Shown piece after piece: positions 19,983-57,710 of a DNA stretch of 64,000 nucleotides. The stretch comes from Candidatus Omnitrophota bacterium. Lineage in GTDB: Bacteria; Omnitrophota; Gorgyraeia; Zapsychrales; Fredricksoniimonadaceae. The position numbers were made by a program, and so were the translations under genes. Within the stretch, counting starts at the first letter, position 1; every line of letters starts with the position of its first letter. The DNA lies in contig JADFXX010000001.1 in assembly GCA_015233335.1 (NCBI GenBank), forward strand, positions 70,302 through 134,301, in the 5' to 3' direction. Under the pieces are notes generated by a model that was given only the letters and a program-made list of their open reading frames with translations, ran no database searches and was not told where the DNA came from.

Positions 19983-20023
19983 TTAAAAACTCTCTCAAAA
20001 ATGTCGTTGGGAAAAGCGATCTG

Positions 20024-30623: not shown

Positions 30624-30710
30624 GGGGACATATTAAATGTAAAAAATTCCTTTGTCATTGAAAAAAAAATATCATTGCGAACCCTAAAGCACACTGATAG
30701 AATCCCGCAA

Positions 30711-41195: not shown

Positions 41196-42704
41196 TCACC
41201 CCCCGGTATGGCACTCCGAACAGTTTGTCGTCTTCCAGGATTCGTCCCCGTCAAAAGGATGCTGGAATGGCAGTCCATCAGAATCTTTCTGCACAGCTGT
41301 CCCGCTGCCTTGTTGTGTGATGATATGGCATGATGTGCATTTGCGGGATATCCCCTCTCCTGTCTTGGTCTTATGCTCATCATCATGACAACGGAAACAA
41401 CCTAAAGAAATCATATGTCCGATATTATCCGGATATGCGTCCCAGCGGGACTTCATCTCAGGAAAGAAATTCATCCGGTAGATCAAAGAAACGGCTTTGA
41501 TGGCCTCTTCAACTTTGTCCTTATGCTCCCCATAATACGCAGCCTGTTTCTTGGCATAATACTCAGTTAACCCCAAACGTATCTTTTCTAAAGCTTGATC
41601 CACAGAGAGATATTCTTTGGAAAGGACCTCGACGGCTTTGGCCTTGATCATGGGAATAGACGGGCTGATACGCTCCTCGGCCAACGCCCGGTTGATCGAA
41701 ACATCAGGAGCTTCAAAGCGGTGGGTTGGTCGGTTGTGGCAATCCATACAGTCCATTTTTCTGATCTTGTTTTGAGGCGGAGCTGTATTTTTATAAGGCG
41801 ATCCCTTGGTCGTATAAATCCTGGCGACCCCCGCCTTATTGATGGCCTTGATCCAGCTGATCTTCTGGCGCTTCGCATCTTCAGGCACGTAATAAATCTC
41901 ATCACCGTAATACATATGGGCGTGAATACCGGATTCGCCGTTTTGTCCGCCCCCGATACGGATCAGCATCTTGATATTCCATGGCAGAGTTTTGCTTGGG
42001 TCATCAGGGTAATAAATCTTATCCAACTGTATGGCATTAAAAGCTTTCCCCGGCCAATGACATTCTTCGCAGGTCTCCTTGGCGGGACGCAAGGTTTCAA
42101 CAGGAGCGGGAGTGGGCCTTGAGTAGGTCCCTTTAATCGCCATAAAAAGCATTTTAACGCCGGCCATTTTGTAATGCACGTACCAACCCACTCCGGAGCC
42201 GATATGGCATTCCACACATTTGACCTGGGCATGGGGCGACTGGGTATAGGCCGTATATTCCGGATTCATGACCTGATGGCATGTGACCCCGCAAAAACGC
42301 TCTGATTCCGTATAATTATAAGCTTTATAACAACCTATTGCGGTCATGATCAAAACAATAGCGGTTCCGACCATAAAAATAAGAATGGCATTCTGGTGGG
42401 TCGACAGAGAAAGGTCGATAACGATGAGTTTATGCGTGCCTCCGTGAGCGCCTTTAAGGATCCGACGCCGCGAAACCCAAGCCCCCCATGGAATCAATAT
42501 CAGGCCGACAATAAGAAACGGCGGCAGGAAAACATATGTAATAAGGCCAAGATAAACGCTGTGGGCGGAAGAAAAGAAATCAATGCAAAATAAAAAAAGT
42601 TCACAGCAAAGAATAAATACGGAAAGCCCTGCCCCTATATAAGTTGTATTGTTATAAAAATGATCGGGAAATCTCTGTTTTCTTTTTTTGGGAAGGTTAT
42701 TCAT
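41196..42704 (-). CDS. inner-membrane multihaem cytochrome c, NapC/NirT-related, ImcH-like
   Basis: 502 aa with three N-terminal TM helices. Six CxxCH motifs (CVECH, CEECH, CMDCH, CFRCH, CTSCH, CSECH) plus one CX3CH (CGVTCH, nt 42276-42293). Confidence 0.75.
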   Translation of the reverse strand: MNNLPKKRKQRFPDHFYNNTTYIGAGLSVFILCCELFLFCIDFFSSAHSVYLGLITYVFLPPFLIVGLILIPWGAWVSRRRILKGAHGGTHKLIVIDLSLSTHQNAILIFMVGTAIVLIMTAIGCYKAYNYTESERFCGVTCHQVMNPEYTAYTQSPHAQVKCVECHIGSGVGWYVHYKMAGVKMLFMAIKGTYSRPTPAPVETLRPAKETCEECHWPGKAFNAIQLDKIYYPDDPSKTLPWNIKMLIRIGGGQNGESGIHAHMYYGDEIYYVPEDAKRQKISWIKAINKAGVARIYTTKGSPYKNTAPPQNKIRKMDCMDCHNRPTHRFEAPDVSINRALAEERISPSIPMIKAKAVEVLSKEYLSVDQALEKIRLGLTEYYAKKQAAYYGEHKDKVEEAIKAVSLIYRMNFFPEMKSRWDAYPDNIGHMISLGCFRCHDDEHKTKTGEGISRKCTSCHIITQQGSGTAVQKDSDGLPFQHPFDGDESWKTTNCSECHTGG

Positions 42705-42840
42705 TTTGATAATTGTAACATAAAAAACAAGATGTTACAGTCATAACCCAAAAATCAAACTAAACTCCAATCCCCTCAAACCGAGCGGCCTTTCATATTC
42801 TGCAAAAACGTATTTATTTAGCGTTCAGAGAGCCACTTGC

Positions 42841-42923
42841 GTGTCATTGCGAGCGAAGCGAAGCAATCTAGAGCCATGCTAAGAGATTGCTTCGTCGCTA
42901 AAAAGCGCTCCTCGCAATGACAC
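42841..42923. repeat. inverted pair of a short dispersed element (GTGTCATTGCGAG...CGAAGCAATCT)
   Basis: Copy A 42841-42869 is on the plus strand. Copy B 42884-42923 is on the minus strand and carries an 11-nt internal insertion. They are separated by 14 nt, in the divergent intergenic region between the two cytochrome genes. A third copy lies at 54140-54173. Confidence 0.75.
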
Positions 42924-43041
42924 TATGAGAGATTTCTCTCTGCGTACTAAACATCTATGCAAGAACAGCGTTAGGCTTTTTTCTCTACGTAGTTTTACTT
43001 ATAACATTACATTTGTCTCTATATTATGATAATCAATATCT

Positions 43042-45825
43042 ATGCTTCAACGAATGACCCTACTTCTGGTTTTCATTCTGGTCCTGCCTTTTACGTTAAA
43101 TGAAAGCCATGCACAAGCTGTTGTGACAAACACCCCCAAGGCGAAAGCCCCTGTTTCTGATGACGATTGTTTGGCCTGTCACAACGATCCAAGCAGCGCG
43201 CCTTTTGTCGATCAAAAGAAATTTAAGACATCGGTTCATGGAGAAAGTCTCTGTACCGGCTGTCATAAGGATTTGATCGGCAGTGATTTCCCCCATAAGA
43301 CTCCTTTAGCACCGGTTGATTGCGGACAATGTCATGCCGAACAACAAACTCGATTTTCAGATAGTGTTCACGGCCATGCACTGTCCCGTCAAGATAAGCT
43401 GGCTCCACGTTGTGTTAACTGCCACGGCAACCACGATATTCTTCCTGTGAAGGACCCTAAATCAAATGTAGCGCCCTTTCATATTCCTTTTGTTTGCGGT
43501 TCATGCCATAGTGAAGGCAAACCAGTTGCCCTTCAGCGGGAGATCCATGCAGATCACATTTTAGAGAACTATTCCGAAAGCATCCATGGAGAAGGGCTTC
43601 TTAAAAAAGGCCTTAATGTCACGGCAACTTGCGCCTCCTGCCATCGGGCCCATCAAATCCTTCCTCATTCTGATCCCCGCTCCTCGATTGCCCGCGATAA
43701 TATAGTCAAGACCTGTCTGCAATGCCACAGCCAGATCGAACAAGTTCATCGCAAGATCATCAAAGGGGAATTATGGGAACAAAACCCCCAAAGCATCCCT
43801 GTTTGCGTCGACTGCCATCAGCCCCACAAGGTACGAAAAGTTTACTACGCACAAGGAGTCGCTGACCGGGACTGCCTGACCTGTCATTCCAATAGAGGCA
43901 TCGTTTCATCCCGTGATCAGCATTCGCTTTTTGTTAACGAACAGGAGATCAACGATTCTATTCATGCCAAGATTGCCTGTGCCCAGTGCCATACACAGGT
44001 ATCTGTTTCCAAGGTGCGCTCCTGCGAAACAATCACAAAGCCGGTGGATTGCGCCATCTGCCACAGTGGGCAAGTCGAGCTTTACCAGCAGGGAATTCAC
44101 GGAAAATTATTTAAAGCAGGCAGTCCCAACGCCCCCTCCTGCAGGGATTGTCACGGGACACATGCGATCCTCTCACATAAGGACCTTAAATCACCTTCTT
44201 ATCCGACTAATATCCCCACCCTTTGCGCCCGGTGTCATCGTGAAAATGAAAAAGCAGCCCTTCTTTATAGAGGGAATGAGCACCAGATCACAACCAATTA
44301 TATAGAAAGCATCCATGGTAAAGGTCTCTTAGACAGCGGTCTGGTTGTGACCGCCACCTGTACAAGCTGTCACTCCGCCCACAAACAGCTGCCTGCCTCA
44401 GATGCCGCATCTTCAGTGAACCGTAACAATATAGCGGCCACCTGTTCCGCATGCCATAAAGGTGTTTATGAAAAATATATAAAAAGCGTTCATGCCATAG
44501 GCCGTGGGGAAAACTCAGATCAATTACCGGCCTGCAATAATTGCCATACGGCCCATACCATTAAAAGAACTGATGAGAGTAGTTTTAAGTTTGATATCAT
44601 GAACAGTTGCGGAAAATGTCATAAAGAGATTGCAGAAACTTACTTTCAAACAGTCCACGGGAAAGCATCCAAACTCGGATTCGCTAAATCTGCTAAATGC
44701 CAGGATTGCCATGGTTCCCATGAAATTCTGCCCGTGACCGACCCTCACTCGTCCTTAAGCCGCAAGAACATCGTTGCGACCTGCCAGAAATGCCATGTTG
44801 GCGCACCAAGACGTTTTGCCGGCTATCTGACCCATGCCACCCACCATGATCCCAAGAAATATCCTTGGATATTCTGGACATTCTGGTTTATGACGGGTCT
44901 GTTGGTCATGACCTTTACGTTAAGCATTCTCCATACGCTCTTGTGGCTGCCCAAATCGCTCGAAATGAGACGGCTCTATCCGCCCAAGTATGATCCGTCG
45001 GAAAAACAATACGTGCGTTTCCCGGTATTTTACCGGATACTCCATATCATCATGATCATAAGCTTCCTGACACTGACCACGACCGGCATGATGCTGAAGT
45101 TCTCATATACTCATTGGGCGGCGCTTATCTCGACGATGATCGGCGGCTTTGCGGTTTCAAGCTTTCTGCATCGCTGTGCGGCGGTCACCCTCTTCGGCCT
45201 TTTTATCGCTCATGTCTGGCATCTTCTCTATTTCAAACGGCTGGAGTCCAAGAGCTTCAAAGAAGTTCTTTTTGGGCCGGACAGTATTCTGTTTTCAAAA
45301 AAAGACCTGAAAGAAATTGCAGCCACGATGAAATGGTATTTGGGAAAGGGGCCATATCCAAAATACGGACGCTGGACTTATTGGGAAAAATTTGATTATT
45401 TTGCCGTACTTTGGGGGATCGTGATCATCGGCACCTCAGGCCTTATGCTTTGGTTCCCTGAGGGCTTTACACACGTTTTACCCGGATGGGTCATCAATGT
45501 AGCGACCATCATCCACAGCGACGAAGCCTTGCTGGCCGCAGGGTTTATTTTCACCATTCACTTTTTTAATACTCACTTTAGGCCCGAAAAGTTCCCTATG
45601 GATACGGTGATCTTCACCGGCCGCATGTCTATTGAAGAATTAAAACGTGAACGCCCATTGGAATACGAAGCTTTGGTCAACAGCGGCAAGCTTGAAGGAC
45701 AGATGGTAGAGCCCATGCCACCCAAAAAGATATTAGCTTTAAGGGTCTTCGGCTGGACAGCCCTGTCGATCGGATTGGTATTAGTTATTTGTATTATTTA
45801 TACGATGATTTTCGGGTATAAGTAA
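43042..45825 (+). CDS. 19-haem cytochrome c fused to a FdnI/HydC-type membrane cytochrome b domain (CbcL-like)
   Basis: 927 aa with a signal peptide. 19 CxxCH motifs counted in aa 43-585. The C-terminal roughly 330 aa (nt ~44839-45825) has about 6 TM helices with conserved-looking His residues (ILHII, FLHRC, IAHVWH, IIHSDE, TIHFFNTHF). Confidence 0.85.
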   Translation: MLQRMTLLLVFILVLPFTLNESHAQAVVTNTPKAKAPVSDDDCLACHNDPSSAPFVDQKKFKTSVHGESLCTGCHKDLIGSDFPHKTPLAPVDCGQCHAEQQTRFSDSVHGHALSRQDKLAPRCVNCHGNHDILPVKDPKSNVAPFHIPFVCGSCHSEGKPVALQREIHADHILENYSESIHGEGLLKKGLNVTATCASCHRAHQILPHSDPRSSIARDNIVKTCLQCHSQIEQVHRKIIKGELWEQNPQSIPVCVDCHQPHKVRKVYYAQGVADRDCLTCHSNRGIVSSRDQHSLFVNEQEINDSIHAKIACAQCHTQVSVSKVRSCETITKPVDCAICHSGQVELYQQGIHGKLFKAGSPNAPSCRDCHGTHAILSHKDLKSPSYPTNIPTLCARCHRENEKAALLYRGNEHQITTNYIESIHGKGLLDSGLVVTATCTSCHSAHKQLPASDAASSVNRNNIAATCSACHKGVYEKYIKSVHAIGRGENSDQLPACNNCHTAHTIKRTDESSFKFDIMNSCGKCHKEIAETYFQTVHGKASKLGFAKSAKCQDCHGSHEILPVTDPHSSLSRKNIVATCQKCHVGAPRRFAGYLTHATHHDPKKYPWIFWTFWFMTGLLVMTFTLSILHTLLWLPKSLEMRRLYPPKYDPSEKQYVRFPVFYRILHIIMIISFLTLTTTGMMLKFSYTHWAALISTMIGGFAVSSFLHRCAAVTLFGLFIAHVWHLLYFKRLESKSFKEVLFGPDSILFSKKDLKEIAATMKWYLGKGPYPKYGRWTYWEKFDYFAVLWGIVIIGTSGLMLWFPEGFTHVLPGWVINVATIIHSDEALLAAGFIFTIHFFNTHFRPEKFPMDTVIFTGRMSIEELKRERPLEYEALVNSGKLEGQMVEPMPPKKILALRVFGWTALSIGLVLVICIIYTMIFGYK

Positions 45826-46809
45826 GCGCAGGCGAAATAATCCCGGCGATGCTTTGAGATAGCGCTCAGAAGAGATCTCCTTTAACCAAAAATTTTTCGT
45901 ATCGGCGTTTTCTTCAATACGGTCATCCCCGATATGCTGGCCCTTAAACATCGGCATAACATCCCAATTGGAATCAATATAACAAAAAGCTTCAATATTC
46001 CAGTCCCTGATAAAGCGGAATAGATGATTTAAAAAATCGATCTTGCCTTGGACCGTATACATTCCCCAAGGGGTCGATTCAGCGATCATAAAAGGCTTAT
46101 GATGTTCCCGGGCTAATTTCACAAAATCTGATGTTCTCCAAAGCCCGCTTGGCATTGCGAACATGCTGGCAGCAAACCAGTCCACATAATCATCCCCCGG
46201 GTACCAATCGATCCACTGAAAAGCGGATTTGTCCCCCCAGCAATAGGAATGCCAGACCCAGGCCGCATTGTTCACTCCTTCTTTACGCAAAAAATCCACC
46301 ACATAGCGGAAAGCCCGTTTATATTTTTGGGGATCATAATGGTTCAAAGGATTATCAAACTCATAACCGATGCGCAGATAAACCGGCCGATCAGCTTTTT
46401 TAAGCCACTGGGCCAATGTTTTCAAATTGGCATCATACGTTCCGGCGATCGTATCATCAAGCGCATCCACCATGTATAAGCCGATCTGAACAACAGAATT
46501 AGGATAAACCCTTAAAAGGGCATCGCCATCCATCGGTCCGGATCCAAGATCACTTGGCGACTTAAGCCCCTCCATTTTCTGGATTGAAGAATACATCATA
46601 GTCCCGCCGGGAGTATTGCCGGTTGCGCGGACATACCCGGCAATGGTATCGCGGTCCTGTCCGACCAAAAGAAGAGTCTTTCCCGACGGAGGAACAAACG
46701 GAGCTGAAGCAGAAAATACCGGGCAGGCCGCCATGATGAGCAGTACTGTGCAAATTACAAGCACAGAACAGACGATATCGGGCTTATTCTTTTGTGTAAT
46801 TGTTTTCAT
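45781..46809 (-). CDS. secreted clan GH-A glycoside-hydrolase-like protein (GH26-like)
   Basis: 342 aa; signal peptide; RIGYEFDNP, WVWH, WYPGDDYVDW, FMIAEST resemble GH26/GH5-type strand-end motifs. Tentative. The 3' end overlaps the convergent cytochrome gene by 45 nt. Confidence 0.45.
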   Translation of the reverse strand: MKTITQKNKPDIVCSVLVICTVLLIMAACPVFSASAPFVPPSGKTLLLVGQDRDTIAGYVRATGNTPGGTMMYSSIQKMEGLKSPSDLGSGPMDGDALLRVYPNSVVQIGLYMVDALDDTIAGTYDANLKTLAQWLKKADRPVYLRIGYEFDNPLNHYDPQKYKRAFRYVVDFLRKEGVNNAAWVWHSYCWGDKSAFQWIDWYPGDDYVDWFAASMFAMPSGLWRTSDFVKLAREHHKPFMIAESTPWGMYTVQGKIDFLNHLFRFIRDWNIEAFCYIDSNWDVMPMFKGQHIGDDRIEENADTKNFWLKEISSERYLKASPGLFRLRLLIPENHRINNTNN

Positions 46810-47515
46810 GGGAATTTATTCTACAAAAAATCTTCACAAATATAATTCCTAGTTCATACAAGATCATAAGCGGGATTGCCAGTGTCAGTTGGGAGGCGAT
46901 ATCAGGCGGAGTCAGAAAAGCCGCGGCAATCAGAATGATAATAATAGCATGCCGCCTCTTCTGACAGAGAAATTCCGGAGTGGCGATGCCGATTTTGGCT
47001 AGAAATGCCAGAACAAGCGGAAGCTCAAAGGCCGCGCCAAAGGCCACGATCATGTGCCCCAAGAACCCCAAATAATTCTTCACCGTCACCATAGGGACCA
47101 GATACTCCGAAGAAAAACTCATCAGGAATCTGTAGGCCATGGGTACGGCTACAAAATACGCGAAAGCCCCGCCCGATATAAAAAACACAAGCGATAAAGG
47201 CGCAAAGATCAAAACAAATTTCTTTTCGGAAGGCTTGAGGGCCCCGGCCACAAAAGCCCAGATCTGATAAAGAATATACGGAGAGGCGACCAGCAGGGCC
47301 AAAACCGCGTCTAATATCATGGTGGCCGAAAACGCCTCACCGGGCGCGGTAAAGACCAAGCGGCCTGCCGGATGCGTCAGCACGGGGATGAGCTTGCCGA
47401 CATAGCTATAACATAGGCAAAGGGCTAAAACATAAGCGCCCGCGGACTTGATCATCCGCGAGCGCAGTTCTTCCAAATGCTTAAAAAACGACTGAAAAAA
47501 AGGGTTCAAACTCAC
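46784..47515 (-). CDS. tatC: twin-arginine translocase subunit TatC
   Basis: 243 aa; FKHLEELRSR, six TM helices, PPD motif (LTPPDIASQ). The GTG start overlaps the tatA stop (GTGA). Confidence 0.9.
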   Translation of the reverse strand: MSLNPFFQSFFKHLEELRSRMIKSAGAYVLALCLCYSYVGKLIPVLTHPAGRLVFTAPGEAFSATMILDAVLALLVASPYILYQIWAFVAGALKPSEKKFVLIFAPLSLVFFISGGAFAYFVAVPMAYRFLMSFSSEYLVPMVTVKNYLGFLGHMIVAFGAAFELPLVLAFLAKIGIATPEFLCQKRRHAIIIILIAAAFLTPPDIASQLTLAIPLMILYELGIIFVKIFCRINSHENNYTKE

Positions 47516-47685
47516 TGTGGCTTAGAATCGATCGGCTTTTTGACATCTTCTTCGGTATCGCGTAAATTCTTTTTAAACTCGCGGATGGCCTTACCTAAAG
47601 CAGCGCCGACCTCAGGTAATTTTTGTGCTCCAAAAAGCAGAATAAATACAACCAAAATCAAAATCAACTCAGGCATACGGCCCAT
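47512..47685 (-). CDS. tatA: twin-arginine translocase subunit TatA/E (not in the ORF track, 57 aa)
   Basis: Hand translation of the minus strand gives MGRMPELILILVVFILLFGAQKLPEVGAALGKAIREFKKNLRDTEEDVKKPIDSKPQ*. The FGAQKLPE..A.GKAIREFKK string is the TatA signature. Confidence 0.85.
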   Translation of the reverse strand: MGRMPELILILVVFILLFGAQKLPEVGAALGKAIREFKKNLRDTEEDVKKPIDSKPQ

Positions 47686-47770
47686 ATTCAACGCTCCTTA
47701 ACAAAACCTAAAGTATGATTAATAATTAAAAAATATTATATAACCGATGTAATAAAGCGACAAGCACTAT

Positions 47771-47788
47771 CTCTGGGCCTTCCCAGAG
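47771..47788 (-). terminator. short GC-rich hairpin just after the tetrahaem cytochrome stop
   Basis: CTCTGGG-cctt-CCCAGAG, a 7-bp perfect stem, 2 nt downstream of the stop at 47791-47793. No clear U-tract follows, so this is a weak call. Confidence 0.3.
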
Positions 47789-47790
47789 CG

Positions 47791-48342
47791 TCACCCTTTA
47801 GGCATCGGATGTTTTATTTTTTCCCACATGGTTTTAAAATCAAACGTTTTGGCAGTAGGTGATTCGGAGTTGTGGCATTTAGCACATGTCTTTTCATCCG
47901 GCACCTTCAGGCCCCCGTCGATCGATTGTTGCTTATCCTTCATAATACTCATCTTCATATAATCTTTCCCTGCTCCGTGACAGGATTCGCAAGAAACCCC
48001 CTCTTCAACAGTGACCTTATCCGTCACCTTATTTTCGCTGAATCCATAGGCGGTGGAGTGGCACTTTAAACATTTGCCGCTGGCCTGAGGATTATCGACC
48101 CCAAATTTTTTGCCAACGTCCTTGGCTTGGGCGGTCCCCAGTGTATCAAAAGCTTTAGCATGGGATGACCCTTGCCAGATGACCGCCTGTTGTCCCATTT
48201 TCTCACTTTTATGGCACATAGAACATTTACTCACGCCCACAAATTCATGATCAGGAGTCTGGGCCATAGAATTAGAGGCACACATAAAAATTACACCGGC
48301 CCCCAAGATCATCCACAACCCTAAAAACCATTTTTTATTCAT
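47791..48342 (-). CDS. periplasmic tetrahaem cytochrome c
   Basis: 183 aa; signal peptide; CSMCH, CLKCH, CESCH, CAKCH. Confidence 0.85.
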   Translation of the reverse strand: MNKKWFLGLWMILGAGVIFMCASNSMAQTPDHEFVGVSKCSMCHKSEKMGQQAVIWQGSSHAKAFDTLGTAQAKDVGKKFGVDNPQASGKCLKCHSTAYGFSENKVTDKVTVEEGVSCESCHGAGKDYMKMSIMKDKQQSIDGGLKVPDEKTCAKCHNSESPTAKTFDFKTMWEKIKHPMPKG

Positions 48343-48361
48343 TTAAAATGCTCCTCTCTCT

Positions 48362-49570
48362 TCAATCTTTTTCGAGCGTTGGAATAAGTTTATTAAGTGC
48401 AAAAAAGAACAAGAAAGGCAACATAATGATCGTCAATGCCCCTAGCAGCCCTTCTTTATATGTTTCCAGACTATGCGGGATAATAGGCAGTTCAAAATGC
48501 ATAAAACCCGCCCATGACAAAGAGAAAGCCTGCCCGCCTATAACAACATTCCAGCGCATCATAAAAACGCCAAAAAGTATTAAGGTAGTCGCGGTCAGTA
48601 TTTTTCCCATCGACAGCGGTTTTCGCAAAAGAATGATCAATGGCACCAAATTGCCGCAGAAATACTGGAACAAAAAGATGCTTAAAAAATCCTTTTCATA
48701 AATAACCGAACGCAGAATATTCCATGATTTCATGGCCGTATAGCCTCTGAACACCATATCCAAAAGTTCCAAAGAAATAGCAAAGACCAAAAAGATCAAG
48801 AGATACTTCGTCGCCATGCGTACGGCATCCAGTTCTTTTTTCGGCATAGCGGACTTCGAACGCCACAAGTTAATTAAGGAATAAAATAAAATACAAAGGG
48901 CGATACCGGACACAGCCGCCGAAACGATAAATATAACCGGCATCAGGGGCGTCATCCACATAGCATTGGCCTTAACAGAGCCGAAAATAAATCCGGCATA
49001 ACCATGCAGGAAGCAAGCCACGGGGATCCCTGTACTGGCCAAAATTTTAGTAACCTTCTCATCTTTCTCAATCGCATCATGCCCGATATCCCAGGCCCCC
49101 AGCGTTAATACGCCATAAGTGACCCTTCTGGCCTGATTGAGCCAACCTTTGCGTCCAACCAATGCCTTTGCCTGTTCGACAAAGTATCTGCGGTAAATAA
49201 ACCATATTTCCATCGATACGATCGCGAAATAAAGGGAATAGACCATGCCAAATGCGGCGATGGCGGAAGTAAAATGCGGAGTGAAAAAAACCTCTTCACA
49301 TCGCAAAGGTTGTTGTAAATGAAGCAAAAGCGGCAAAGGAGCTGCCCACAAAAGAGCAAAGGAAAAAATAAGCGAAAACTTTGCTATCCTTTTTAATTCC
49401 TGCCGGGCGAAGACATGGTACAAAGAAGACAACACAAAAGCCCCGGCCACAAGTCCGGTCATAAAAGGATACATGACGATCTGAATACCCCAGTAAATAT
49501 ACTCATTGGGATAAACAAACAATTCCTTGACCGTCCACTCCGATCCATGAACTATGACAGGATGGATCAC
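48362..49570 (-). CDS. NrfD/PsrC-family integral membrane quinone-interacting subunit
   Basis: 402 aa with about 10 TM helices. Follows a Tat-dependent 4x[4Fe-4S] subunit, the canonical NrfD-family pairing. Confidence 0.8.
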   Translation of the reverse strand: MIHPVIVHGSEWTVKELFVYPNEYIYWGIQIVMYPFMTGLVAGAFVLSSLYHVFARQELKRIAKFSLIFSFALLWAAPLPLLLHLQQPLRCEEVFFTPHFTSAIAAFGMVYSLYFAIVSMEIWFIYRRYFVEQAKALVGRKGWLNQARRVTYGVLTLGAWDIGHDAIEKDEKVTKILASTGIPVACFLHGYAGFIFGSVKANAMWMTPLMPVIFIVSAAVSGIALCILFYSLINLWRSKSAMPKKELDAVRMATKYLLIFLVFAISLELLDMVFRGYTAMKSWNILRSVIYEKDFLSIFLFQYFCGNLVPLIILLRKPLSMGKILTATTLILFGVFMMRWNVVIGGQAFSLSWAGFMHFELPIIPHSLETYKEGLLGALTIIMLPFLFFFALNKLIPTLEKD

Positions 49571-49574
49571 TGCC

Positions 49575-50363
49575 TCACCTCACCGATCTATCCAGGCCCA
49601 GATAATAAGCCTGAGGGTCTGTCCCATATTCTTCTTTTAATACAGAGACCCTTTCATTTAAAACTATTTTGGTCACCGGATCATCAGGGTCTTTGATATT
49701 TCCTATTTGTCTTGCCCCAACCGGACAATTCTGAACACAAGCGGGTTTTAATCCCTTGACCGTACGGTGATAACAAAAATTACACTTCTCAGCGACTTTA
49801 AGCTCAGGGTTAAAGAATCTGGCGCTATACGGACAGGCTTCAATGCAATACCCGCAGCCGATACACCATTTCCTGTCAACCATGACAATCCCCTCTTTGA
49901 TCTGATAGGTTGCCCCGACAGGGCATACCTGCACGCAAGGCGGATTTTCACACTGGTTGCAAAGCTTGGGAACAAAGAACCCTTTGGCAATCTCAGATGG
50001 GGGCACTGCCTGGCCTTCGATCGCGGCATCAATAAATCCGTCCCGTCCGGCCTTGGGAGAATCAATAAGAGTGTCCCCGTCTTTTTTGACCACATATCTC
50101 TCGACCCAGGTCCGGGATACCGGCGCATCGTAAGCGATCTCATTTTCCTGCTTACAAGCCTTGACACAAAAACCACAGCCGATACATTTATTCGTGTCCA
50201 CCAAGAATACCCATCGTCGCTTGGTATTTTGCACAAAGGCCAAGGCCTCACTAGGCCCGAGGATTTTAAAGGCCGCCGGAGATAGGGCTACAGCGGCTAC
50301 CCCCATACATACGGTCTTTATAAATTTCCTTCGTTCTTGATCCACAGGTTCATTATTTTCCAT
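49575..50363 (-). CDS. Tat-exported 4x[4Fe-4S] ferredoxin-like subunit (PsrB/NrfC/HybA/DsrO family)
   Basis: 262 aa; twin-arginine signal QERRKFIKT. Four Cys clusters: CIGCGFCVKAC, CNQCENPPCVQVCP, CIGCGYCIEACP, CNFC...CVQNCP. Confidence 0.9.
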   Translation of the reverse strand: MENNEPVDQERRKFIKTVCMGVAAVALSPAAFKILGPSEALAFVQNTKRRWVFLVDTNKCIGCGFCVKACKQENEIAYDAPVSRTWVERYVVKKDGDTLIDSPKAGRDGFIDAAIEGQAVPPSEIAKGFFVPKLCNQCENPPCVQVCPVGATYQIKEGIVMVDRKWCIGCGYCIEACPYSARFFNPELKVAEKCNFCYHRTVKGLKPACVQNCPVGARQIGNIKDPDDPVTKIVLNERVSVLKEEYGTDPQAYYLGLDRSVR

Positions 50364-50886
50364 TGATCGCTGCCCCCGTTTCCTTCAAATTAGTCCCGGC
50401 CAGATTGTTATCAACCGTACGGCTAGGCCCGTTGGGATGATGCGGATCATGACATGAACAACACTCTTTCCCGGGATAATGCTGTTGCGGGTCAATCCCT
50501 TTGATCTGACCGCGTAAGCTAGTCGGATAATTGAGTTTTGTATGGCATCGTTCGCAAAGCTCACGACTTTTGTCAATGGGAAGCTTCTCAATGGTATCAG
50601 GATGGCCAACCGCAGGCCCATGGCAATTTTCACATTGAATGATCTTATGTGGGGATGCTATGATCTTTTTAAAATTCTCATCATGGCAGTCGGCACAATA
50701 TTCTCTTGACTGGTATTTGACTTTAAAATCTGCCCACTCTTTTTCATTGCCTTGCCTGTGATAACTGTACATAAAGCCCCTGTCCCCCACTTTAAAGTCC
50801 TTGGGGACAAAAAAATGCCGTACTGTGATAAGAATCACAAATACGGCAAGAACGACTAAAAATGGTCGTATCACATGATTATGCAT
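50353..50886 (-). CDS. membrane-anchored tetrahaem cytochrome c
   Basis: 177 aa; N-terminal TM helix (RPFLVVLAVFVILITV); CADCH, CENCH, CERCH, CSCH (CCSCHDPHH). Confidence 0.85.
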   Translation of the reverse strand: MHNHVIRPFLVVLAVFVILITVRHFFVPKDFKVGDRGFMYSYHRQGNEKEWADFKVKYQSREYCADCHDENFKKIIASPHKIIQCENCHGPAVGHPDTIEKLPIDKSRELCERCHTKLNYPTSLRGQIKGIDPQQHYPGKECCSCHDPHHPNGPSRTVDNNLAGTNLKETGAAINGK

Positions 50887-50914
50887 TAAATCCTTAAGGA
50901 TTTACTGACTTTCT

Positions 50915-52999
50915 TTACCAGGAAAACTTAGCATCGAGCATAAAAATGTTCGCTGAATAGTTGCCGGCGCCACCAACTCCCGCAACATCCCGATAGCTGG
51001 CGTGTTCATATTTAGGGCCTATCTTCAACCATTTATGATAGGTCCAATCAAGACCTGTTGTAAAGTTAAGCATCCTAAAATTAGACCCTAAAGGGACTCC
51101 GTTAGCAAAATTAACATAATTATCGGAGATCGTATAAGTCACGGTATTGGTCCATGTTAAATTATTTATAGGACTATAACTGTCTGAAAAACTCCAGCTA
51201 TTGTCTCCTGAGTTGAAAGTAGGAATATAAGGATAAGTTGCCGTATTAGCCCCGCCCGGCTCTGATGCGGCCAATGTCCTGACATAATTTTCCACGTGCG
51301 AATATGTCAGCATCAATAAAAGAGGGTCGATGGGCTGTAATGTAATGTCATACGTGAATACGGATGACAACATATGATTCTCGGATACGGGATAATGGGA
51401 CACCGATTCAGCCACTGCCGATGCCTGGGGATTATAAACAGTATCGATGAATTGATATTTCAATGAATTCTGCACCCATCGATACGGCTTCCAAGACAGA
51501 GTCGAATCTACCTGGGTTGAATTTATTTTTAAAGAATCAAGACAAATAAGATAGAGGGGATTGCTTACAGTAGCATCATCCGTATCATATCTGCTGTTTT
51601 CTATACGATGCTTAACCTGGTTTCTGATCGTAAAAAACCTGTTAGGCACAATATCCATACCGACAGTCCACGACGCTTTCTGGGTTCTATCCAGCCTGTT
51701 TTGATAATCTGCGTGGCCGGAGGCGTTATAATTCTCAATATTCCAATCTCTCCATTGCTCCATTGCACTTTCAGCGTACAGACTGGTATGAGATATACCT
51801 GAATAGCGCAGGGCGACGTGTTCCCCAACATGATCATTACGATTTTTGACATTCTGAGTATATGTATTCGCGTTCGTTGTTGGTATAGCATATTGAGATT
51901 GTACGCTGTTTTCCATGTGTTCATACCTGCCATCGGCAAGAAAAGTCAAATCAGGGGTCAAACTAGAATTTAAGTTCATCACCCAAACATGGTCACTCTC
52001 CACGCCATTAGCAAAGTTCCAATTCCACTTTGTTCCTGTAGCAGTAACGACGCCGCTTGAATTGATCGTTTGCGACAACACCTGCGTTAGATCGGTATCA
52101 TGAATGCGGTTATAATGATACCCCAACGCCACAAAGGTCTTGTCATTGAGCATCCACTTTTCGGCTCTAACCCCGGAGCCAAATAATTTGGCATCAGGGT
52201 ATTGACCATAGGTGACTTGGGTAATTGATGAAGCTGGATTGTAATTCAGACCCGGCATTATTGTTTGATTATGATTATAATCAACTTCAATTTTCTGGTC
52301 TCCTTTTAAAGTGACTCCGGCAACATCTTTTTTCTCTTTAAGGGTAATTCTGTCAATCGTATCATTGACCCCCATCCAGGCCGGAGCAATATTCCTACTG
52401 CCTAAACTAGACGTGGCAGAACCCCATGCCTCCATTGACTTATAGCCATCTTTAGAATCATGTTCATAAGTCAGGTCTATGAAAGGGTCCGTCATAGGTC
52501 CCAAGCCGGCTTCTAATTTGAAGTAACTGATATCTATTTGCAGATCAGGACTATTGGCATGAGCCCCGCTGACAACATTCTGTCCGGCCGTAGTTCCGTA
52601 GTTAGGATAGACCGCTCCGGTATTGTCATAATATTTTCTAAAAGCATTATAATCGATTTGCAAGAAAGCCAAGTCTCCCTTGGTTAAGGTTAAATGAGCG
52701 GTATAATCATCGGTTTTCTCGAATGCGCTTCCCTCAACACTAAGAGAAATGTCTTTATTAATGCTCTTAACAAAGGTGATATCACCGATACCGGCATTGC
52801 CGCCCTCCTTCATCCAATTAAGGGCTTGGAATTTACCCACATTTCCCTTAACATAGGCATACTGCACGACAGGAGACAGCGTGATGCTAAAAGGCGCTGT
52901 TGATTCCTGGGCCCAGGTAAACTGTCCTATCCCTGTCATCCAACTGGCTACTGTTAGCGTTAATAAGATTCGGAGGCTTCTCATATTTTTTCCTCTCAA
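50915..52999 (-). CDS. outer-membrane beta-barrel protein, MtrB/PioB-like porin candidate
   Basis: 694 aa; signal peptide ending TWAQE. Y/N/T/S/G-rich with alternating amphipathic strands and the C-terminal signature ...MLDAKFSW. Starts 7 nt after the 8-haem cytochrome gene. Confidence 0.65.
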   Translation of the reverse strand: MRGKNMRSLRILLTLTVASWMTGIGQFTWAQESTAPFSITLSPVVQYAYVKGNVGKFQALNWMKEGGNAGIGDITFVKSINKDISLSVEGSAFEKTDDYTAHLTLTKGDLAFLQIDYNAFRKYYDNTGAVYPNYGTTAGQNVVSGAHANSPDLQIDISYFKLEAGLGPMTDPFIDLTYEHDSKDGYKSMEAWGSATSSLGSRNIAPAWMGVNDTIDRITLKEKKDVAGVTLKGDQKIEVDYNHNQTIMPGLNYNPASSITQVTYGQYPDAKLFGSGVRAEKWMLNDKTFVALGYHYNRIHDTDLTQVLSQTINSSGVVTATGTKWNWNFANGVESDHVWVMNLNSSLTPDLTFLADGRYEHMENSVQSQYAIPTTNANTYTQNVKNRNDHVGEHVALRYSGISHTSLYAESAMEQWRDWNIENYNASGHADYQNRLDRTQKASWTVGMDIVPNRFFTIRNQVKHRIENSRYDTDDATVSNPLYLICLDSLKINSTQVDSTLSWKPYRWVQNSLKYQFIDTVYNPQASAVAESVSHYPVSENHMLSSVFTYDITLQPIDPLLLMLTYSHVENYVRTLAASEPGGANTATYPYIPTFNSGDNSWSFSDSYSPINNLTWTNTVTYTISDNYVNFANGVPLGSNFRMLNFTTGLDWTYHKWLKIGPKYEHASYRDVAGVGGAGNYSANIFMLDAKFSW

Positions 53000-53005
53000 A
53001 AAAGT

Positions 53006-53794
53006 TTAATAGTATAAATGCGCGCTATAATTAGACCCATGCACTGCATCATGACAGCCCGATTTCCAGCATGTTCCGGCCGTCCAAAAACTGGCATGGC
53101 TTCCGCCACCCATATTGGGGTATAGGACCGTTGCATGGCAACGCAAACAAAGATTATAATCCCCGGCTACCAACATTTTATCATTGACCGAACCGTGGAC
53201 CTGATGACAAACAGTACAGCCCTCTTTTAAAGCATCATGCTTAAAAACATACGGTCCGCGTTTGTCCGTATGGCACTTGAAACAAACCTCATTCACCCCA
53301 TCTTCGGAGGTGGCCGTCCAGGGACGAACATCTATGGAGTGGGCATCATGACAATCCGTGCAGCTCATCTTTCCCTCAACAACCGGGTGATGATAAGGCA
53401 GGCGGAACTGCATCTTCTTATCAGTGTGACAGGTAAAGCATACTTCAGGGTCCTTCTTAGGGTTGATCATAGTACCCTTGCCGCCGCCGTTATCTGCGTG
53501 GATCGAACCGGGGCCATGGCATGTTTCGCAAGCTTCAGCGCCGGTGGTGTCATTCTTGATATTAATGCGCGCATGGGTTGAAAGCTTATACTCCTTAACC
53601 TGCTTCTCATGGCAGGTGGCGCAAGTGTCCATGCCCACATACTTGGCTTTCTTTAAATAAAGCATTTCATTGACCTTGGCTTGGTCTGCTTGGGACACGG
53701 AAATCCCTCCTACCCAAAACAGTCCAAATACCAACGCCAAGACTACAAACAGCGCTCTAGCTTGTCCAATGATTTGGTGTCTTGCCTCTTTCAT
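53006..53794 (-). CDS. periplasmic multihaem cytochrome c, MtrA/DmsE/OmaB-like (7 CxxCH + 1 CX4CH)
   Basis: 262 aa; signal/anchor; CATCH, CETCH, CFTCH, CTDCH, CFKCH, CTVCH, CLRCH, plus CWKSGCH followed by DAVHGSN, which resembles MtrA-family C-termini. Confidence 0.8.
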   Translation of the reverse strand: MKEARHQIIGQARALFVVLALVFGLFWVGGISVSQADQAKVNEMLYLKKAKYVGMDTCATCHEKQVKEYKLSTHARINIKNDTTGAEACETCHGPGSIHADNGGGKGTMINPKKDPEVCFTCHTDKKMQFRLPYHHPVVEGKMSCTDCHDAHSIDVRPWTATSEDGVNEVCFKCHTDKRGPYVFKHDALKEGCTVCHQVHGSVNDKMLVAGDYNLCLRCHATVLYPNMGGGSHASFWTAGTCWKSGCHDAVHGSNYSAHLYY

Positions 53795-53820
53795 AAGTCC
53801 TCCAATTAGGCTTATAGTAC

Positions 53821-54117
53821 TTATTTAGTCGTTGCCGGTGCTGTTTTAGCAAAATCCTCGATTGTTCCTACCTTTTTATAAGTATCAGCTGTCGGCTTTT
53901 GGTCTCCAGCGCTTTTAATAACGGCCTTTCCATAATCATTGGGATCATGCGCCCCGTCATCCTTCTTAGGCATTCTATCCACATGGCAATCAATGCATTT
54001 GGCCTTAGCATCATCACCAAACGCTTCCTTATAAGCTTTGATCTGCATCATATCAGCATGCACCGGCACTGCCCAAAAGATAAAACCTGTTAAGACAACA
54101 AGCATGATTTTTTTCAT
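53821..54117 (-). CDS. small periplasmic monohaem cytochrome c
   Basis: Start set at the ATG at 54117 (MKKIMLVVLTGFIFWAVPVHA signal). Single CIDCH. The 18-aa N-terminal extension in the ORF track is read-through of the repeat element. Confidence 0.75.
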   Translation of the reverse strand: MKKIMLVVLTGFIFWAVPVHADMMQIKAYKEAFGDDAKAKCIDCHVDRMPKKDDGAHDPNDYGKAVIKSAGDQKPTADTYKKVGTIEDFAKTAPATTK

Positions 54118-54139
54118 CTTATTCTCCTCTTGATTTTTA

Positions 54140-54173
54140 GTGTCATTGCGAAGATCAACGCGGCGAAGCAATC
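54140..54173. repeat. third copy of the GTGTCATTGCGA...CGAAGCAATCT element
   Basis: GTGTCATTGCGAAGATCAACGCGGCGAAGCAATCT, between the hemA stop (54188) and the first cytochrome gene of the operon. Confidence 0.7.
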
Positions 54174-54187
54174 TCTTAAAAACGGGA

Positions 54188-55264
54188 TTACTTCACCTCT
54201 GCGGGGCTCGTAATGACACTCTTTGAATTTCTTCCCTCTATTAATTGTATTTTATTTATAACTGCATAGAACTCTTGCACTTTATTTGAAACAATTTGTT
54301 CAACCTGCCGGGCGGCACCAAGCCGCTTTTGAACATTGTTTTGAACCACGCGGTCCATATCATCTACAGTCAATAAACAGACGCCGTTAACTTGAGCCAC
54401 ATCCGGAGCAATATTGCGCGGCATGGAAATGTCAATACAAACCAATTTTTTACCGCCCCTTATCTGCATTGTTTTTTCAACCAGATCTTTTTCAATCAGA
54501 TAATGCGGACAAGAAGATGAACATATACAGACATCCACTTGAGGAAGGATCCGGGGCAATTCCAAAAACTCAACAGCACGGGCCGGGCTGTGTTTTGCCA
54601 GCTCTTCGGCTTTTTCCAAAGTCCTGTTCATGATATAAATATTTTTGACCCCTTTATTTCCCAGCTCCTGAAGGGTCAAACTGCCCATCTTACCGGAGCC
54701 TAAAATCAACACTGTCTTATCTTGCAGGGAACCCACGATATTCTGTGCCATGCAGACACTCGCCCAGCTGACTGAAGAACCGCCAAAATCGATCTGGGTT
54801 TCCCGGCGGGCTTTCTTGCCTGTCTCAAGGACTAAATTAGTCAGGACATTAAAAACTTTATCCATCATGGCATTTTTGCGGGAAAGCTCGACAGCTTCCC
54901 TGATCTGCCCTAAAATTTGTTTCTCGCCTAAAATCAAAGAATCCAAGCCGCAGGCAACTTCCAATAAATGAACAACGGCCTGCTCCCCCTGAAGCACATA
55001 AAATAATTCTTGCAGTTCTTTTGTTTGGGGTTGATGTTTAAGCAGGAACAACTTATTAAGAATTTCTGAAGGACTATACTCATCCACGACATGAGCATAA
55101 ACTTCACACCGGTTGCAGGTGGAAAGGACGATCGCAGACAAGATCGAGGGGTCACTTTTAAATTCGGACAGGAAAAGCTCAACTTCTAACGGGGACAGAT
55201 AAAATTTTTCACGTGTTTGGATGGCAGACGTTTTATGATTAATGCCGACCGTCAGTATCTTCAT
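54188..55264 (-). CDS. hemA: glutamyl-tRNA reductase
   Basis: 358 aa; ILTVGINHKTS..REK, STCNRCEVY (catalytic Cys), LILGSGKMG (NADPH site). Somewhat short at the C-terminus. ATGA overlap with the upstream response regulator. Confidence 0.85.
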   Translation of the reverse strand: MKILTVGINHKTSAIQTREKFYLSPLEVELFLSEFKSDPSILSAIVLSTCNRCEVYAHVVDEYSPSEILNKLFLLKHQPQTKELQELFYVLQGEQAVVHLLEVACGLDSLILGEKQILGQIREAVELSRKNAMMDKVFNVLTNLVLETGKKARRETQIDFGGSSVSWASVCMAQNIVGSLQDKTVLILGSGKMGSLTLQELGNKGVKNIYIMNRTLEKAEELAKHSPARAVEFLELPRILPQVDVCICSSSCPHYLIEKDLVEKTMQIRGGKKLVCIDISMPRNIAPDVAQVNGVCLLTVDDMDRVVQNNVQKRLGAARQVEQIVSNKVQEFYAVINKIQLIEGRNSKSVITSPAEVK

Positions 55265-55763: not shown

Positions 55764-56408
55764 TTAGACCAATCCCTTGGCCAAAGCATATTTAACCAGA
55801 GCTGCAGTGGTCTTAAAACCTAATTTATGGATCAAGCGGTTACGGTGGGTTTCCACAGTGCGGATACTGATTTTCAAACGGGTGGCAATATTTTTGTTGG
55901 CGTTCCCCTGAGCCACCAATTTTAGAATTTCTTTTTCCCGTACGGTCAAAATTTCCAAAGAAGGGACATCCCCCTCTTTGACGGAACGTACATATTGTTC
56001 AGTAATAAGCTCTGAAATAGCCGGTGAAACAAAGGTCTTATTCTTCATGACCATTTTAATGGCCATGACCAAAAGATCAAAAGCATTATCTTTCAGGACA
56101 TACCCCGATGCGCCAAATGCCATGGCCCGTTTAAAATGTTCCTGGTCCTTTTGCATCGTCAAAACTAGGCATTTGATGTGAGGAAAATCCTTTCGGATCT
56201 CTTTTAATGTGGCAAGGCCGTCTAAATTAGGCATGGACAGGTCCATCACCACACAGTCAGCCTTAACAGAGGCTAATTTCTCCAAAAGGTCCTCACCGTC
56301 CCGTGCCTGGGCCACCACTTTAAAATCCGGCTCACGGTCAAGAAGACCTTTTAATCCGGCCCTCAATATTTCATGGTCATCAGCCAAAATAATACGCACA
56401 CAGGCCAT
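55764..56408 (-). CDS. NarL/FixJ (LuxR-HTH) family response regulator
   Basis: Start at the ATG at 56408 (MACVRIILADDHEILR). The receiver domain is followed by LTVREKEILKLVAQGNANKNIATRLKISIRTVETHR. Confidence 0.9.
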   Translation of the reverse strand: MACVRIILADDHEILRAGLKGLLDREPDFKVVAQARDGEDLLEKLASVKADCVVMDLSMPNLDGLATLKEIRKDFPHIKCLVLTMQKDQEHFKRAMAFGASGYVLKDNAFDLLVMAIKMVMKNKTFVSPAISELITEQYVRSVKEGDVPSLEILTVREKEILKLVAQGNANKNIATRLKISIRTVETHRNRLIHKLGFKTTAALVKYALAKGLV

Positions 56409-57541: not shown

Positions 57542-57710
57542 AGATGAACAGTTATTATATATTCGGCACATTCAGGAATTTTTTGCCAAAAGTCTGCGAG
57601 GCTTTATGACAAAAATGTTCCAAATACAGAAAATCTTTAGAACATTTTTGTCATAAACCGAAGCAGACGGCAAAAATATTCCGTGCCGAATATATAATAA
57701 CTGTTCATCT
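57542..57710. repeat. 169-bp near-perfect palindromic hairpin (MITE-like or insulator/terminator)
   Basis: Outer arms 57542-57569 / 57683-57710 are 28/28 complementary. Inner arms 57603-57620 / 57640-57657 are 18/18. Additional paired blocks TTTTGCC/GGCAAAA and GTCTGC/GCAGAC. 19-nt loop. Confidence 0.85.

Follow-up and report, generated by a model that had tools for sequence, protein, structure and literature searches.

Is a short repeat that recurs beside the multihaem cytochrome genes of an uncultivated bacterium a shared regulatory site, or a selfish element that merely lies there? The question is raised by a 64,000-nucleotide stretch of DNA from a Candidatus Omnitrophota bacterium (assembly GCA_015233335.1, contig JADFXX010000001.1, positions 70,302 to 134,301), the whole of which is here called the window. 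An earlier note, made from the sequence alone, described three copies of a short element at two places in the window and proposed either a cis-regulatory site for electron-transfer genes or a selfish intergenic repeat resembling repetitive extragenic palindromes (REPs). The second proposal is the one upheld here, since the element has the anatomy of CGTC-tagged REPs and Ssn-related motifs (SRMs), varies in its presence at orthologous phage sites, and elsewhere flanks ssn genes, which encode GIY-YIG nucleases. With a probability of about 80%, the window copies are two dimers of a non-autonomous hairpin element of the REP/SRM type and not a cytochrome operator, and the ATTGCGAG...CGAAGCAAT family to which they belong is a distinct and very widespread family within the CGTC-tagged REP/SRM class.

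The left box of the element, GTGTCATTGCGA, has three exact matches in the window, at 42841 (plus strand), 42912 (minus strand), and 54140 (plus strand), and the right box, CGAAGCAATCT, also has three. By our own arithmetic, any given 12-mer should turn up about 0.008 times on the two strands of 64 kb, so that three exact copies of GTGTCATTGCGA are far above chance. Copies A, B, and C were thus confirmed where the earlier note had placed them, but its count of three was one short: a left box with one mismatch, at 54208–54219 on the minus strand, belongs to a fourth unit, D, which is the reverse complement of 54184–54219 and has the sequence GTGTCATTACGAGCCCCGCAGAGGTGAAGTAATCCC. As unit D partners unit C, the second locus is an inverted pair too, and the window holds four units arranged as two inverted tail-to-tail dimers, at 42842–42922 and 54141–54218 (Table 1). 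Dimer 1 is a heterodimer of the short unit A, whose variant is the commonest form in other genomes (25 sightings), and the long unit B. In all four units, TGTC precedes ATTGC or ATTAC and a C directly follows the palindrome (GCAAT-C or GTAAT-C), and the tails are CTA, CTC, CTC, and CCC. The outer stem of unit D is a within-unit compensated variant of ATTGC/GCAAT.

Table 1. Units and spacers of the two dimers in the window.
Feature	Position	Strand	Composition and covariance-model match
Unit A, short form	42842..42870	+	TGTC, ATTGC-GA-[GCGAAGC]-GA-A-GCAAT, tail CTA; match 42840-42871, 46.4 bits
Dimer 1 spacer, 16 nt	42869..42884		tagagccatgctaaga; loop of the long hairpin
Unit B, long form	42885..42922	-	TGTC-ATTGC-GA-G-GA-[GCGC TTTTT AGCG]-AC-GA-A-GCAAT-CTC; match 42882-42924, 45.7 bits
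Unit C	54141..54175	+	TGTC-ATTGC-GA-A...inner region...C-GA-A-GCAAT-CTC; match 54139-54176, 37.1 bits
Dimer 2 spacer, 12 nt	54174..54185		tcttaaaaacgg
Unit D	54186..54218	-	Outer stem ATTAC/GTAAT; match 54183-54220, 43.5 bits

A covariance model built from 62 units, with the four window units in its training set, was run over the window with filters off and returned exactly these four units at 37–46 bits, followed by a match of 14 bits (E = 0.28). A possible degenerate box that the earlier note had pointed out at 30672–30681 has neither a right-hand box nor a partner and is missed by the covariance model; it is a chance match. The folding of copies A and B into a hairpin of about 80 nt was borne out, and dimer 2 folds likewise: the free energies are -45.5 (plus strand) and -44.9 kcal/mol (minus strand) for dimer 1, with z = -5.5 and -5.1, and -35.8 (plus) and -34.6 kcal/mol (minus) for dimer 2, with z = -4.8 and -6.3, and no shuffled sequence reached equal stability at either locus. 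Single units are of ordinary stability under RNA parameters (z = +0.8 to -0.5). An Rfam search over the window gave nothing at the gathering threshold, and both loci yielded sub-threshold noise in permissive scans.

Dimer 1 resides between two divergent multihaem cytochrome genes, encoding a 502-aa NapC/NirT-type protein (minus strand) and a 927-aa protein (plus strand) that is identical to NCBI protein HQL14_00500. Dimer 2 resides between hemA, the glutamyl-tRNA reductase gene (called from Pfam GlutR_N and Shikimate_DH), and the gene for a 99-aa cytochrome that heads a porin-cytochrome operon. The second locus had been described as lying upstream of a cytochrome transcription unit; it does adjoin the small cytochrome gene, with unit C 21 nt upstream of its ATG (54120, minus strand), but it is a hemA/cytochrome junction, and unit D overlaps the 3' end of hemA, where it codes the last 10 codons (SVITSPAEVK) and the stop codon at 54188–54190. 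A two-component system with a NarL/GerE-type response regulator (55764–56426) adjoins the cytochrome cluster.

The same neighborhood was compared in three related Omnitrophota loci (L121, L126, and L127), whose HemA proteins are 57–72% identical to that of the window and whose genes follow one co-linear order: kinase, regulator, regulator, hemA, small cytochrome, cytochrome, porin, cyt502, cyt613, and cyt929. In all three, only 19–26 nt separate hemA from the small cytochrome gene and contain no element, and no unit was found in the 142 kb of the relatives' loci by a relaxed pattern or by the covariance model. The absence of the element from the orthologous junction therefore marks it as a lineage insertion, not a conserved promoter feature.

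Outside this lineage the family is found beside unrelated genes. A scan of one genome per species with the pattern GTCATTGCGAG-N(3-33)-CGAAGCAATC yielded at least 120 genome stretches, which by their record titles fall into at least 18 phyla. Their hosts include Alpha-, Gamma-, and Deltaproteobacteria, Myxococcota, Campylobacterota (Helicobacter rodentium), Bacteroidota, Ignavibacteriota, and Chloroflexota, as well as Cyanobacteria, Melainabacteria, Patescibacteria, Zixibacteria, Planctomycetota, Omnitrophota, Latescibacterota, Armatimonadota, Gemmatimonadota, and Firmicutes (Sporomusa); 5,426 E. coli genomes gave no match. Units also occur in nine plasmid or chromid records, including 25 places in a 1.76-Mb Novosphingobium replicon, and in at least 120 IMG/VR viral contigs and a few INPHARED phage records. 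Clustering of open reading frames (ORFs) from 120 genome loci revealed no recurrent neighbor gene, only generic families without a link to cytochromes; all-against-all clustering of 120 viral loci gave generic or phage structural families alone, and where two dimers bracket genes, these have ordinary metabolic functions. By crude ORF calls, 71 copies lie between co-directional genes, 34 between convergent genes, and 19 between divergent genes, the least frequent context. The earlier note had named two features as speaking against an operator, absence from orthologous promoters and a scatter of copies without regard to gene function, and the element shows both. The cis-regulatory proposal is not supported, in view of the relatives' empty junctions and of the copies that have unrelated neighbors in phages and in at least 18 phyla. 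One locus in a Patescibacteria contig (L048) was considered as a candidate autonomous element and rejected, as it is a Mutator-family insertion sequence with its own terminal repeats; this IS256-like element (556–1838, 24-nt terminal repeats) is inserted between two adjacent dimers.

The anatomy of the unit was derived with a relaxed pattern that collected 442 units: 227 in viral contigs and 215 in the 120 genome loci together with the window. Read 5' to 3', the unit consists of a [C/T]GTC tag, ATTGC, GA, G, a variable core, C, GA, A, GCAAT, C, and a short C-rich tail, giving the signature ATTGCGAG...CGAAGCAAT with the conserved boxes GTCATTGCGAG and CGAAGCAATC separated by 2 to 40 nt. GTC is conserved in 99–100% of tags, and nearly all units have C or T at the preceding position (-1). 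The C directly 3' of the palindrome is invariant in the alignment of 62 sequences, although the search pattern demanded it. The outer stem comprises the five base pairs of ATTGC/GCAAT, with the compensated variants ATTAC/GTAAT and ACTGC/GCAGT, and is followed by two opposed GA dinucleotides in 5'-YGAR-3' contexts. The 5'-YGAR-3' sequence is the classic context for sheared tandem G·A pairs, and the opposed dinucleotides would pair in this way and stabilize the unit. The core is closed by a G-C pair in 126 of 141 distinct units and forms a hairpin that differs between units in length and sequence. At least 27 stems can be told apart, a second G·A module is common, and a GNA triloop ends the core in 48 of the 141; GCGAAGC is the commonest core, and GCGCAGC, GCGTAGC, and GCGGAGC are also seen.

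The pairing is evident from covariation. Over the 62-sequence alignment, 84.8% of cells are paired, compared with 76.8% after shuffling, and none of 500 shuffles reached 84.8%; sliding the partners lowers the value to 19–54%, and all five pairs of the inner helix change on both sides. Because pyrimidine mismatches would take the place of the G·A pairs on the opposite strand, the structure is specific to one strand, and single-stranded DNA (ssDNA) suits it best. Two other readings of the hairpin were rejected: the bulge of the G·A motif is on the wrong side for a canonical K-turn by our own reasoning, and the hairpins are followed by no U-tract, as a terminator would require, with no terminator-like site at locus 1. 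Translation of the units extends ORF calls spuriously, giving peptides such as ...LLRFARND..., ...SLRAKRSNL..., and ...DCFASLAMT..., for example in the mechanically called ORF upstream of the small cytochrome gene; a literature text search with the DNA boxes and six translated peptides returned nothing relevant.

The dimeric arrangement of the window is the rule elsewhere: among 80 pairs of adjacent units in the genome loci, 63 have their tails facing each other and their tags pointing outward. Spacers are mostly of 24–32 nt, and the partners are usually unlike, one short and one long. Two subfamilies can be distinguished, C-GTC...AATC-CAG and T-GTC...AATC-TC, so that the tail is CCAG in C-tagged and CTC in T-tagged units; the window copies belong to the second. 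Among 431 distinct combinations of flank and unit, the base before GTC (-1) and the base after ATC (+1) are associated (C...C 154, T...T 118, C...T 64, T...C 55; p = 4e-14), which reflects either a 1-nt duplication on insertion or simply the two subfamilies.

Two published repeat systems resemble the element. The CGTC-tagged REP superfamily, with families CGTC-1 to CGTC-4, carries an unpaired CGTC or TGTC tag, a stem beginning with A·T and then T·A, and a CCA tail (Di Nocera, De Gregorio, Rocco, BMC Genomics 2013, PMC3733652). Its members, which include Neisseria dRS3 and Rickettsia RPE-4 and RPE-6, form mostly head-to-head dimers, often heterodimers, are known from five phyla, and are described as "apparently lacking a dedicated transposase"; they lie mostly between co-directional or convergent genes, sometimes within ORFs, and are reported never to flank Y1 genes (PMC3733652). 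The present units share the tag, the A/T start of the stem, the short 3' tail, the spaced dimers, and the lack of a transposase gene, but extend over at least 18 phyla and phages, compared with the five phyla reported. Back-translation of the peptides in Additional file 3 of that study yields the stems ATTCC.., ATCCCGGC, ATCGCCGGG, ATTCCGTGG, and ATTCTGAA; as far as these peptides represent the published families, neither the ATTGCGAG...CGAAGCAAT stem nor its peptides are among them, a negative that is not absolute (PMC3733652).

The second system is that of the NTS repeat of Neisseria (dRS3), CGTCATTCCCGCGMAVGCGGGAATCYRG, and its nuclease SsnA (Chenal et al., Nat Commun 2025, PMC11893778). 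The G/A-rich strand of NTS forms a tagged hairpin as ssDNA, and SsnA, a single-domain GIY-YIG nuclease of about 100 aa (cd10448), binds this hairpin and cuts a few nucleotides 5' of the tag in ssDNA only (PMC11893778). The trinucleotide that precedes the palindrome governs cutting, binding requires the palindrome and, most critically among the bases, the C that follows it, and RNA is not a substrate (PMC11893778). NTS copies cluster around particular genes, and SsnA lowers transformation by, and integration of, NTS-bearing DNA (PMC11893778). Homologues of ssn across bacteria are typically bracketed, in the manner of an insertion sequence, by SRMs, repeats of 20–50 nt reported in hundreds of dispersed copies, often as inverted pairs (PMC11893778). 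The present units resemble SRMs in their oriented hairpin, 5' HGTC tag, C after the palindrome, inverted pairs, and unit(+)-ssn-unit(-) arrangement, and differ from NTS in the outer stem, which is ATTGC/GCAAT here and ATTCCC/GGGAAT in NTS, and in that the stem goes on into a variable inner hairpin by way of tandem G·A pairs and a bulged A.

Other likenesses are more distant. REPINs, or bacterial interspersed mosaic elements (BIMEs), with their REP-associated tyrosine transposase RAYT (TnpA-REP) in Pseudomonas and Enterobacteria, are also palindromic doublets that form a long hairpin with proposed ssDNA hairpin recognition, are likewise non-autonomous and copy the ends of a gene-bearing unit that is itself present in a single copy, and, as BIMEs, also alternate short and long units, as Y and Z. 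They differ in their GTAG tag and HUH Y1 enzyme, as against the [C/T]GTC tag and GIY-YIG nuclease here, and in being described as vertically inherited and lineage-specific, whereas the ATTGCGAG family is nearly identical across phyla. The core GCGAAGC of the commonest unit is exactly the DNA mini-hairpin d(GCGAAGC), which belongs to the extraordinarily stable d(GCGNAGC) hairpins (PMC13037366), a structural motif and not a genetic element. Descent from a DDE insertion sequence as a miniature inverted-repeat transposable element (MITE) was considered and rejected, there being no target duplication beyond a weak 1-nt signal, and the only insertion sequence seen, that of L048, having ends of its own.

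In some genomes the units are physically associated with Ssn-type nuclease genes. Such genes, gathered from plasmids and chromids with tblastn and from viral contigs by scanning, are nearly all flanked by [C/T/G]GTC-tagged hairpins of their own kind, and the tandem G·A layout recurs in two other Ssn-flanking hairpins, those of Planktothrix (ATTCT-GA-G...C-GA-AGAAT) and Spirosoma (ATCCC-GA-G-GAA-C-GA-GGGAT). At one locus from the viral scan, L337, the units on either side of the ssn gene are of the very family seen in the window. The product of this gene, annotated as a GIY-YIG nuclease of Flavobacterium beibuense, carries Pfam PF01541 and is 45% identical over its whole length (E = 5e-28) to the N. 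gonorrhoeae SsnA orthologue, whose gene has NTS repeats on its flanks. When the contigs of its homologues (P0128, P0134, P0138, P0145, P0233, and P0181) were compared, all seven of the ssn loci (L337, L375-377, L378-379, L380, L382, L384, and L385) had the gene between ATTGCGAG units or inside alternating arrays of them. The array of L375 has up to nine units upstream of ssn and three downstream, and L384 and L385 have the minimal form unit(+)-ssn-unit(-), in which the downstream unit overlaps the stop codon. Judged from these loci, a dimer such as those of the window has the ends of an ssn-bearing unit but a short spacer (12–30 nt) where the gene would be. A GIY-YIG motif search of the genome and viral loci found one gene (L069), which is flanked by a different, ATTCC-type repeat. 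As a separate observation, a Planktothrix agardhii plasmid (p1, record 17356-20601; L327) carries an ssn-type GIY-YIG gene in a defense-island setting, between an MmeI-type restriction-modification gene and DISARM drmA, inside ATTCTGAG...CGAAGAAT arrays that include tandem truncated left halves.

Related phage genomes differ in whether units are present at orthologous sites. About twenty of the viral contigs represent one phage group, recognizable by the order of the portal, scaffold, and major capsid genes, in which units occupy differing junctions in each member. To obtain a set unbiased as to the repeat, 80 of roughly 430 relatives of this group were picked by capsid protein alone; 57 of the 80 have units, at about 0.26 per kb. 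The portal-scaffold junction is empty in L279, L278, L246, and L281 and filled in L269, L263, L264, L253, L217, and L233, and the cores differ among the filled sites, with GCCGAAGGC and GGCGAAGCC forming a doubly compensated pair. L190 differs from L187 and L133 by an exact 29-nt insertion, GTCATTGCGAGGAACGTAGTGACGAAGCA, at GTAAT|AACTC, which starts at the GTC tag and has no duplication, the target's own AAC replacing the terminal ATC of the unit. In L306, a new unit stands beside the tag end of a resident unit. No target-site duplication was found at the insertions beyond the weak 1-nt C...C / T...T signal.

The units show a strong strand bias in the phage group and in some other contigs. Phage-group singletons with co-directional ORFs on either side are sense-oriented in 44 of 45 cases, and 143 of 163 matches in the capsid-picked set are on the coding strand. 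Other contigs are equally biased but antisense: all seven units of L143 are on one strand, opposite to the genes, and those of L196 are entirely antisense. Singletons are sense and antisense in 18 and 9 cases in the genome loci and in 32 and 25 cases in the viral loci, and no orientation is universal across the two sets. A bias bound to the strand but without a universal orientation suits insertion tied to one DNA strand better than a function in RNA.

Several further features of these contigs are recorded here. Dimers occur in frame within a phage portal gene (L164, 4709–4779) and within a gene of a prophage or of a type resembling gene transfer agents (L136, 3135–3222; L229, 622–709), where they apparently add an in-frame peptide, like the RPE elements of Rickettsia. 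A recurrent composite in L250-L258 consists of a truncated left half-unit, GTCATTGCGAGGCAC, a C-rich linker, TCCCCCTCT, and a complete unit, which suggests a nested or abortive insertion into the loop of a resident unit. An unrelated short palindrome, CCCTCTCCCTYGAYGGGAGAGGG, recurs intergenically in the phage group, for example in L133, L145, L153, and L217, often followed by (T)CAGGGTGAGGGTGA, and ATTGCGAG units are at times inserted directly beside it.

These findings can be joined into a mechanism, which is drawn by analogy with the ssn loci. The G/A-rich strand of a unit would fold as a tagged ssDNA hairpin recognized by a cognate Ssn protein, and copies would spread through a single-stranded DNA intermediate, with an Ssn-type enzyme acting in trans; mobilization of ATTGCGAG units by Ssn is thus a plausible extrapolation. 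The dimer would stand to the ssn-bearing unit as a MITE does to its insertion sequence, or a REPIN to its RAYT gene, and new lineages would be reached together with ssn genes and on phages or plasmids. On this view the window dimers are insertions into permissive intergenic DNA, the second of which has rewritten the last codons of hemA, and any effect on cytochrome expression is a by-product; a stable stem-loop in the hemA-cytochrome transcript and a cruciform-prone palindrome in the divergent promoter region are possible ones. A stronger version, possible but doubtful on present evidence, is that ATTGCGAG...CGAAGCAAT constitutes an actively transposing, phage-borne SRM lineage that crosses phyla, with its purine-rich, non-Watson-Crick hairpin representing a new class of Ssn specificity.

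A number of results weigh against the assignment of the window dimers to a REP/SRM element. The published SRM motif, HGTCWYN(0-2)YYVSBRHN(0-5)WNVSBRGN(0-2)RNCYNB, matches none of the 442 units and no site in the window, whereas the canonical NTS does match it. The motif is an operational search sequence from 29 genomes and not a biological definition, and its failure on all 442 units means that the published census would have missed the ATTGCGAG family. The four described CGTC families have perfect stems of 8–9 bp with loops of 4–5 nt, and the present units have five Watson-Crick pairs; with their G·A pairs and variable inner hairpin, they fit the CGTC superfamily but none of its four families. 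No ssn-like gene is present in the 64-kb window (best tblastn E = 0.2), and the window copies may therefore be orphans. No cognate enzyme was found in Omnitrophota, Alphaproteobacteria, or the phage group either, and the seven ssn loci all encode Flavobacterium-type proteins, one of them labeled as a Limnohabitans metagenome-assembled genome. Some phage insertions are 46–54 nt long, those at the portal-scaffold junction 46–50 nt, and carry extra C-rich and G-rich flanks, so that the mobile unit is not uniform. Finally, the experiments on SsnA cover cleavage and the effect on transformation alone, and not the movement of SRMs (PMC11893778).

Four other explanations were weighed. A shared operator of a multihaem-cytochrome regulon, bound for example by the NarL/GerE-type regulator, would account for the presence of both dimers beside cytochrome genes that form one operon in the relatives and for the adjoining two-component system, but the three relatives keep the same regulators and the same operon with the junction empty, the same sequence has unrelated neighbors in phage structural modules and across at least 18 phyla, and the variable box spacing suits a hairpin and not a duplex operator; an operator is hardly credible here. 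A role at the RNA level, of the kind proposed for classic REPs, is unlikely: the repeat could form a stable stem-loop that blocks 3' exonucleases, a processing site, or an attenuator of read-through, kept because it uncouples hemA from the cytochrome operon. Dimer 2 does lie inside a co-directional pair, where its transcribed strand folds at -34.6 kcal/mol (z = -6.3), the phage-group singletons are sense in 44 of 45 cases, and REPs are reported in the REP literature to prefer the 3' ends of genes. This role is difficult to reconcile with an orientation toward genes that is inconsistent across lineages and wholly antisense in L143 and L196, with the lack of a U-tract and of a terminator-like site at locus 1, with the ordinary stability of single units under RNA parameters, and with the inactivity of SsnA on RNA (PMC11893778). 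As a side effect, an RNA-level role may be compatible with the selfish repeat.

The two remaining explanations concern the enzyme and the host. That the units are classical REPINs moved by RAYT, an IS200/IS605-type Y1 HUH transposase, is very improbable: the tag is [C/T]GTC and not GTAG, CGTC-type REPs are reported never to lie beside Y1 transposase genes (PMC3733652), Y1 genes are few or absent in the Alphaproteobacteria, a group with many of these repeats, the clustered genome and viral loci contain no recurrent Y1-like family near units, and the genes that do lie between ATTGCGAG units encode GIY-YIG proteins, even if the inverted doublets, the strand bias, and the lack of target duplication resemble REPIN/RAYT and IS200/IS605 systems. 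An arrangement of SRM, genes, and SRM that is useful to the host was also considered, in which the dimers, flanking an 11-kb segment with the porin-cytochrome genes and the 927-aa cytochrome gene, limit or shape recombination of incoming ssDNA at this locus or may have mediated its rearrangement. The clustering of NTS around genes in Neisseria and the lowered integration of NTS-bearing DNA upon SsnA cutting (PMC11893778) give it a precedent, and the window cluster is indeed rearranged relative to the relatives, with dimer 1 at that junction. It is nevertheless quite improbable, as the pattern was recognized post hoc from two dimers alone, no ssn gene is present in the window, and the other boundary of the rearrangement, near 50900, has no unit.

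For the window itself, the assignment to a selfish repeat means that the motif on the cytochrome side is a hitch-hiking element and hence no evidence for a regulon, which removes a tempting false lead; an ordinary selfish repeat at this locus, it is as a family a new and apparently very large member of a recently described class. As the published motif misses the ATTGCGAG family, Ssn systems are probably more abundant, and probably have a wider host range, than has been estimated; that range would include Omnitrophota, Patescibacteria, Chloroflexota, Cyanobacteria, and phages. The polymorphic phage insertions provide a natural data set on how such repeats move, and the family is a candidate new recognition sequence for programmable ssDNA-cutting tools. 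If the lineage is indeed transposing, the filled and empty phage sites would be the first direct footprints of SRM transposition, and a GIY-YIG nuclease would act as a single-strand DNA transposase, an activity that to our knowledge is not recorded for this enzyme class; the question posed in 2013 of what mobilizes CGTC-type REPs would then be answered.

Several further observations concern the rest of the window and its relatives. The cluster at 41196–55264 is rearranged compared with L121, L126, and L127, in that cyt927 is inverted and stands beside cyt502, with dimer 1 exactly at the cyt502/cyt927 junction. In the relatives, hemA, cytS, cyt260, porin, cyt502, cyt613, and cyt929 are co-linear, with cyt260 in the slot after the small cytochrome; in the window, six other genes (45781–50886) separate the porin gene and cyt927, and an orthologue of cyt613 (613 aa) is absent from the cluster. 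In the relative L121 (1937–3256), the hemA ORF (439 aa) continues into the coding sequence of the small cytochrome, apparently through a fusion or frameshift. Between the start of a sensor-kinase gene (57454) and the next gene (57738) lies a nested palindrome of about 169 nt (57542–57710), unrelated in sequence to the CGTC-type unit; its outer arms of 28 nt (57542–57569 and 57683–57710) are 100% complementary and its inner arms of 33 nt (57592–57624 and 57636–57668) are 85% complementary, and it may be a MITE-like element or a regulatory cruciform. Finally, a 63-nt unit occurs twice in tandem at 12362–12487, with 79% identity between the copies, inside an ORF of 1210 aa (11617–15249), which suggests a 21-residue protein repeat.

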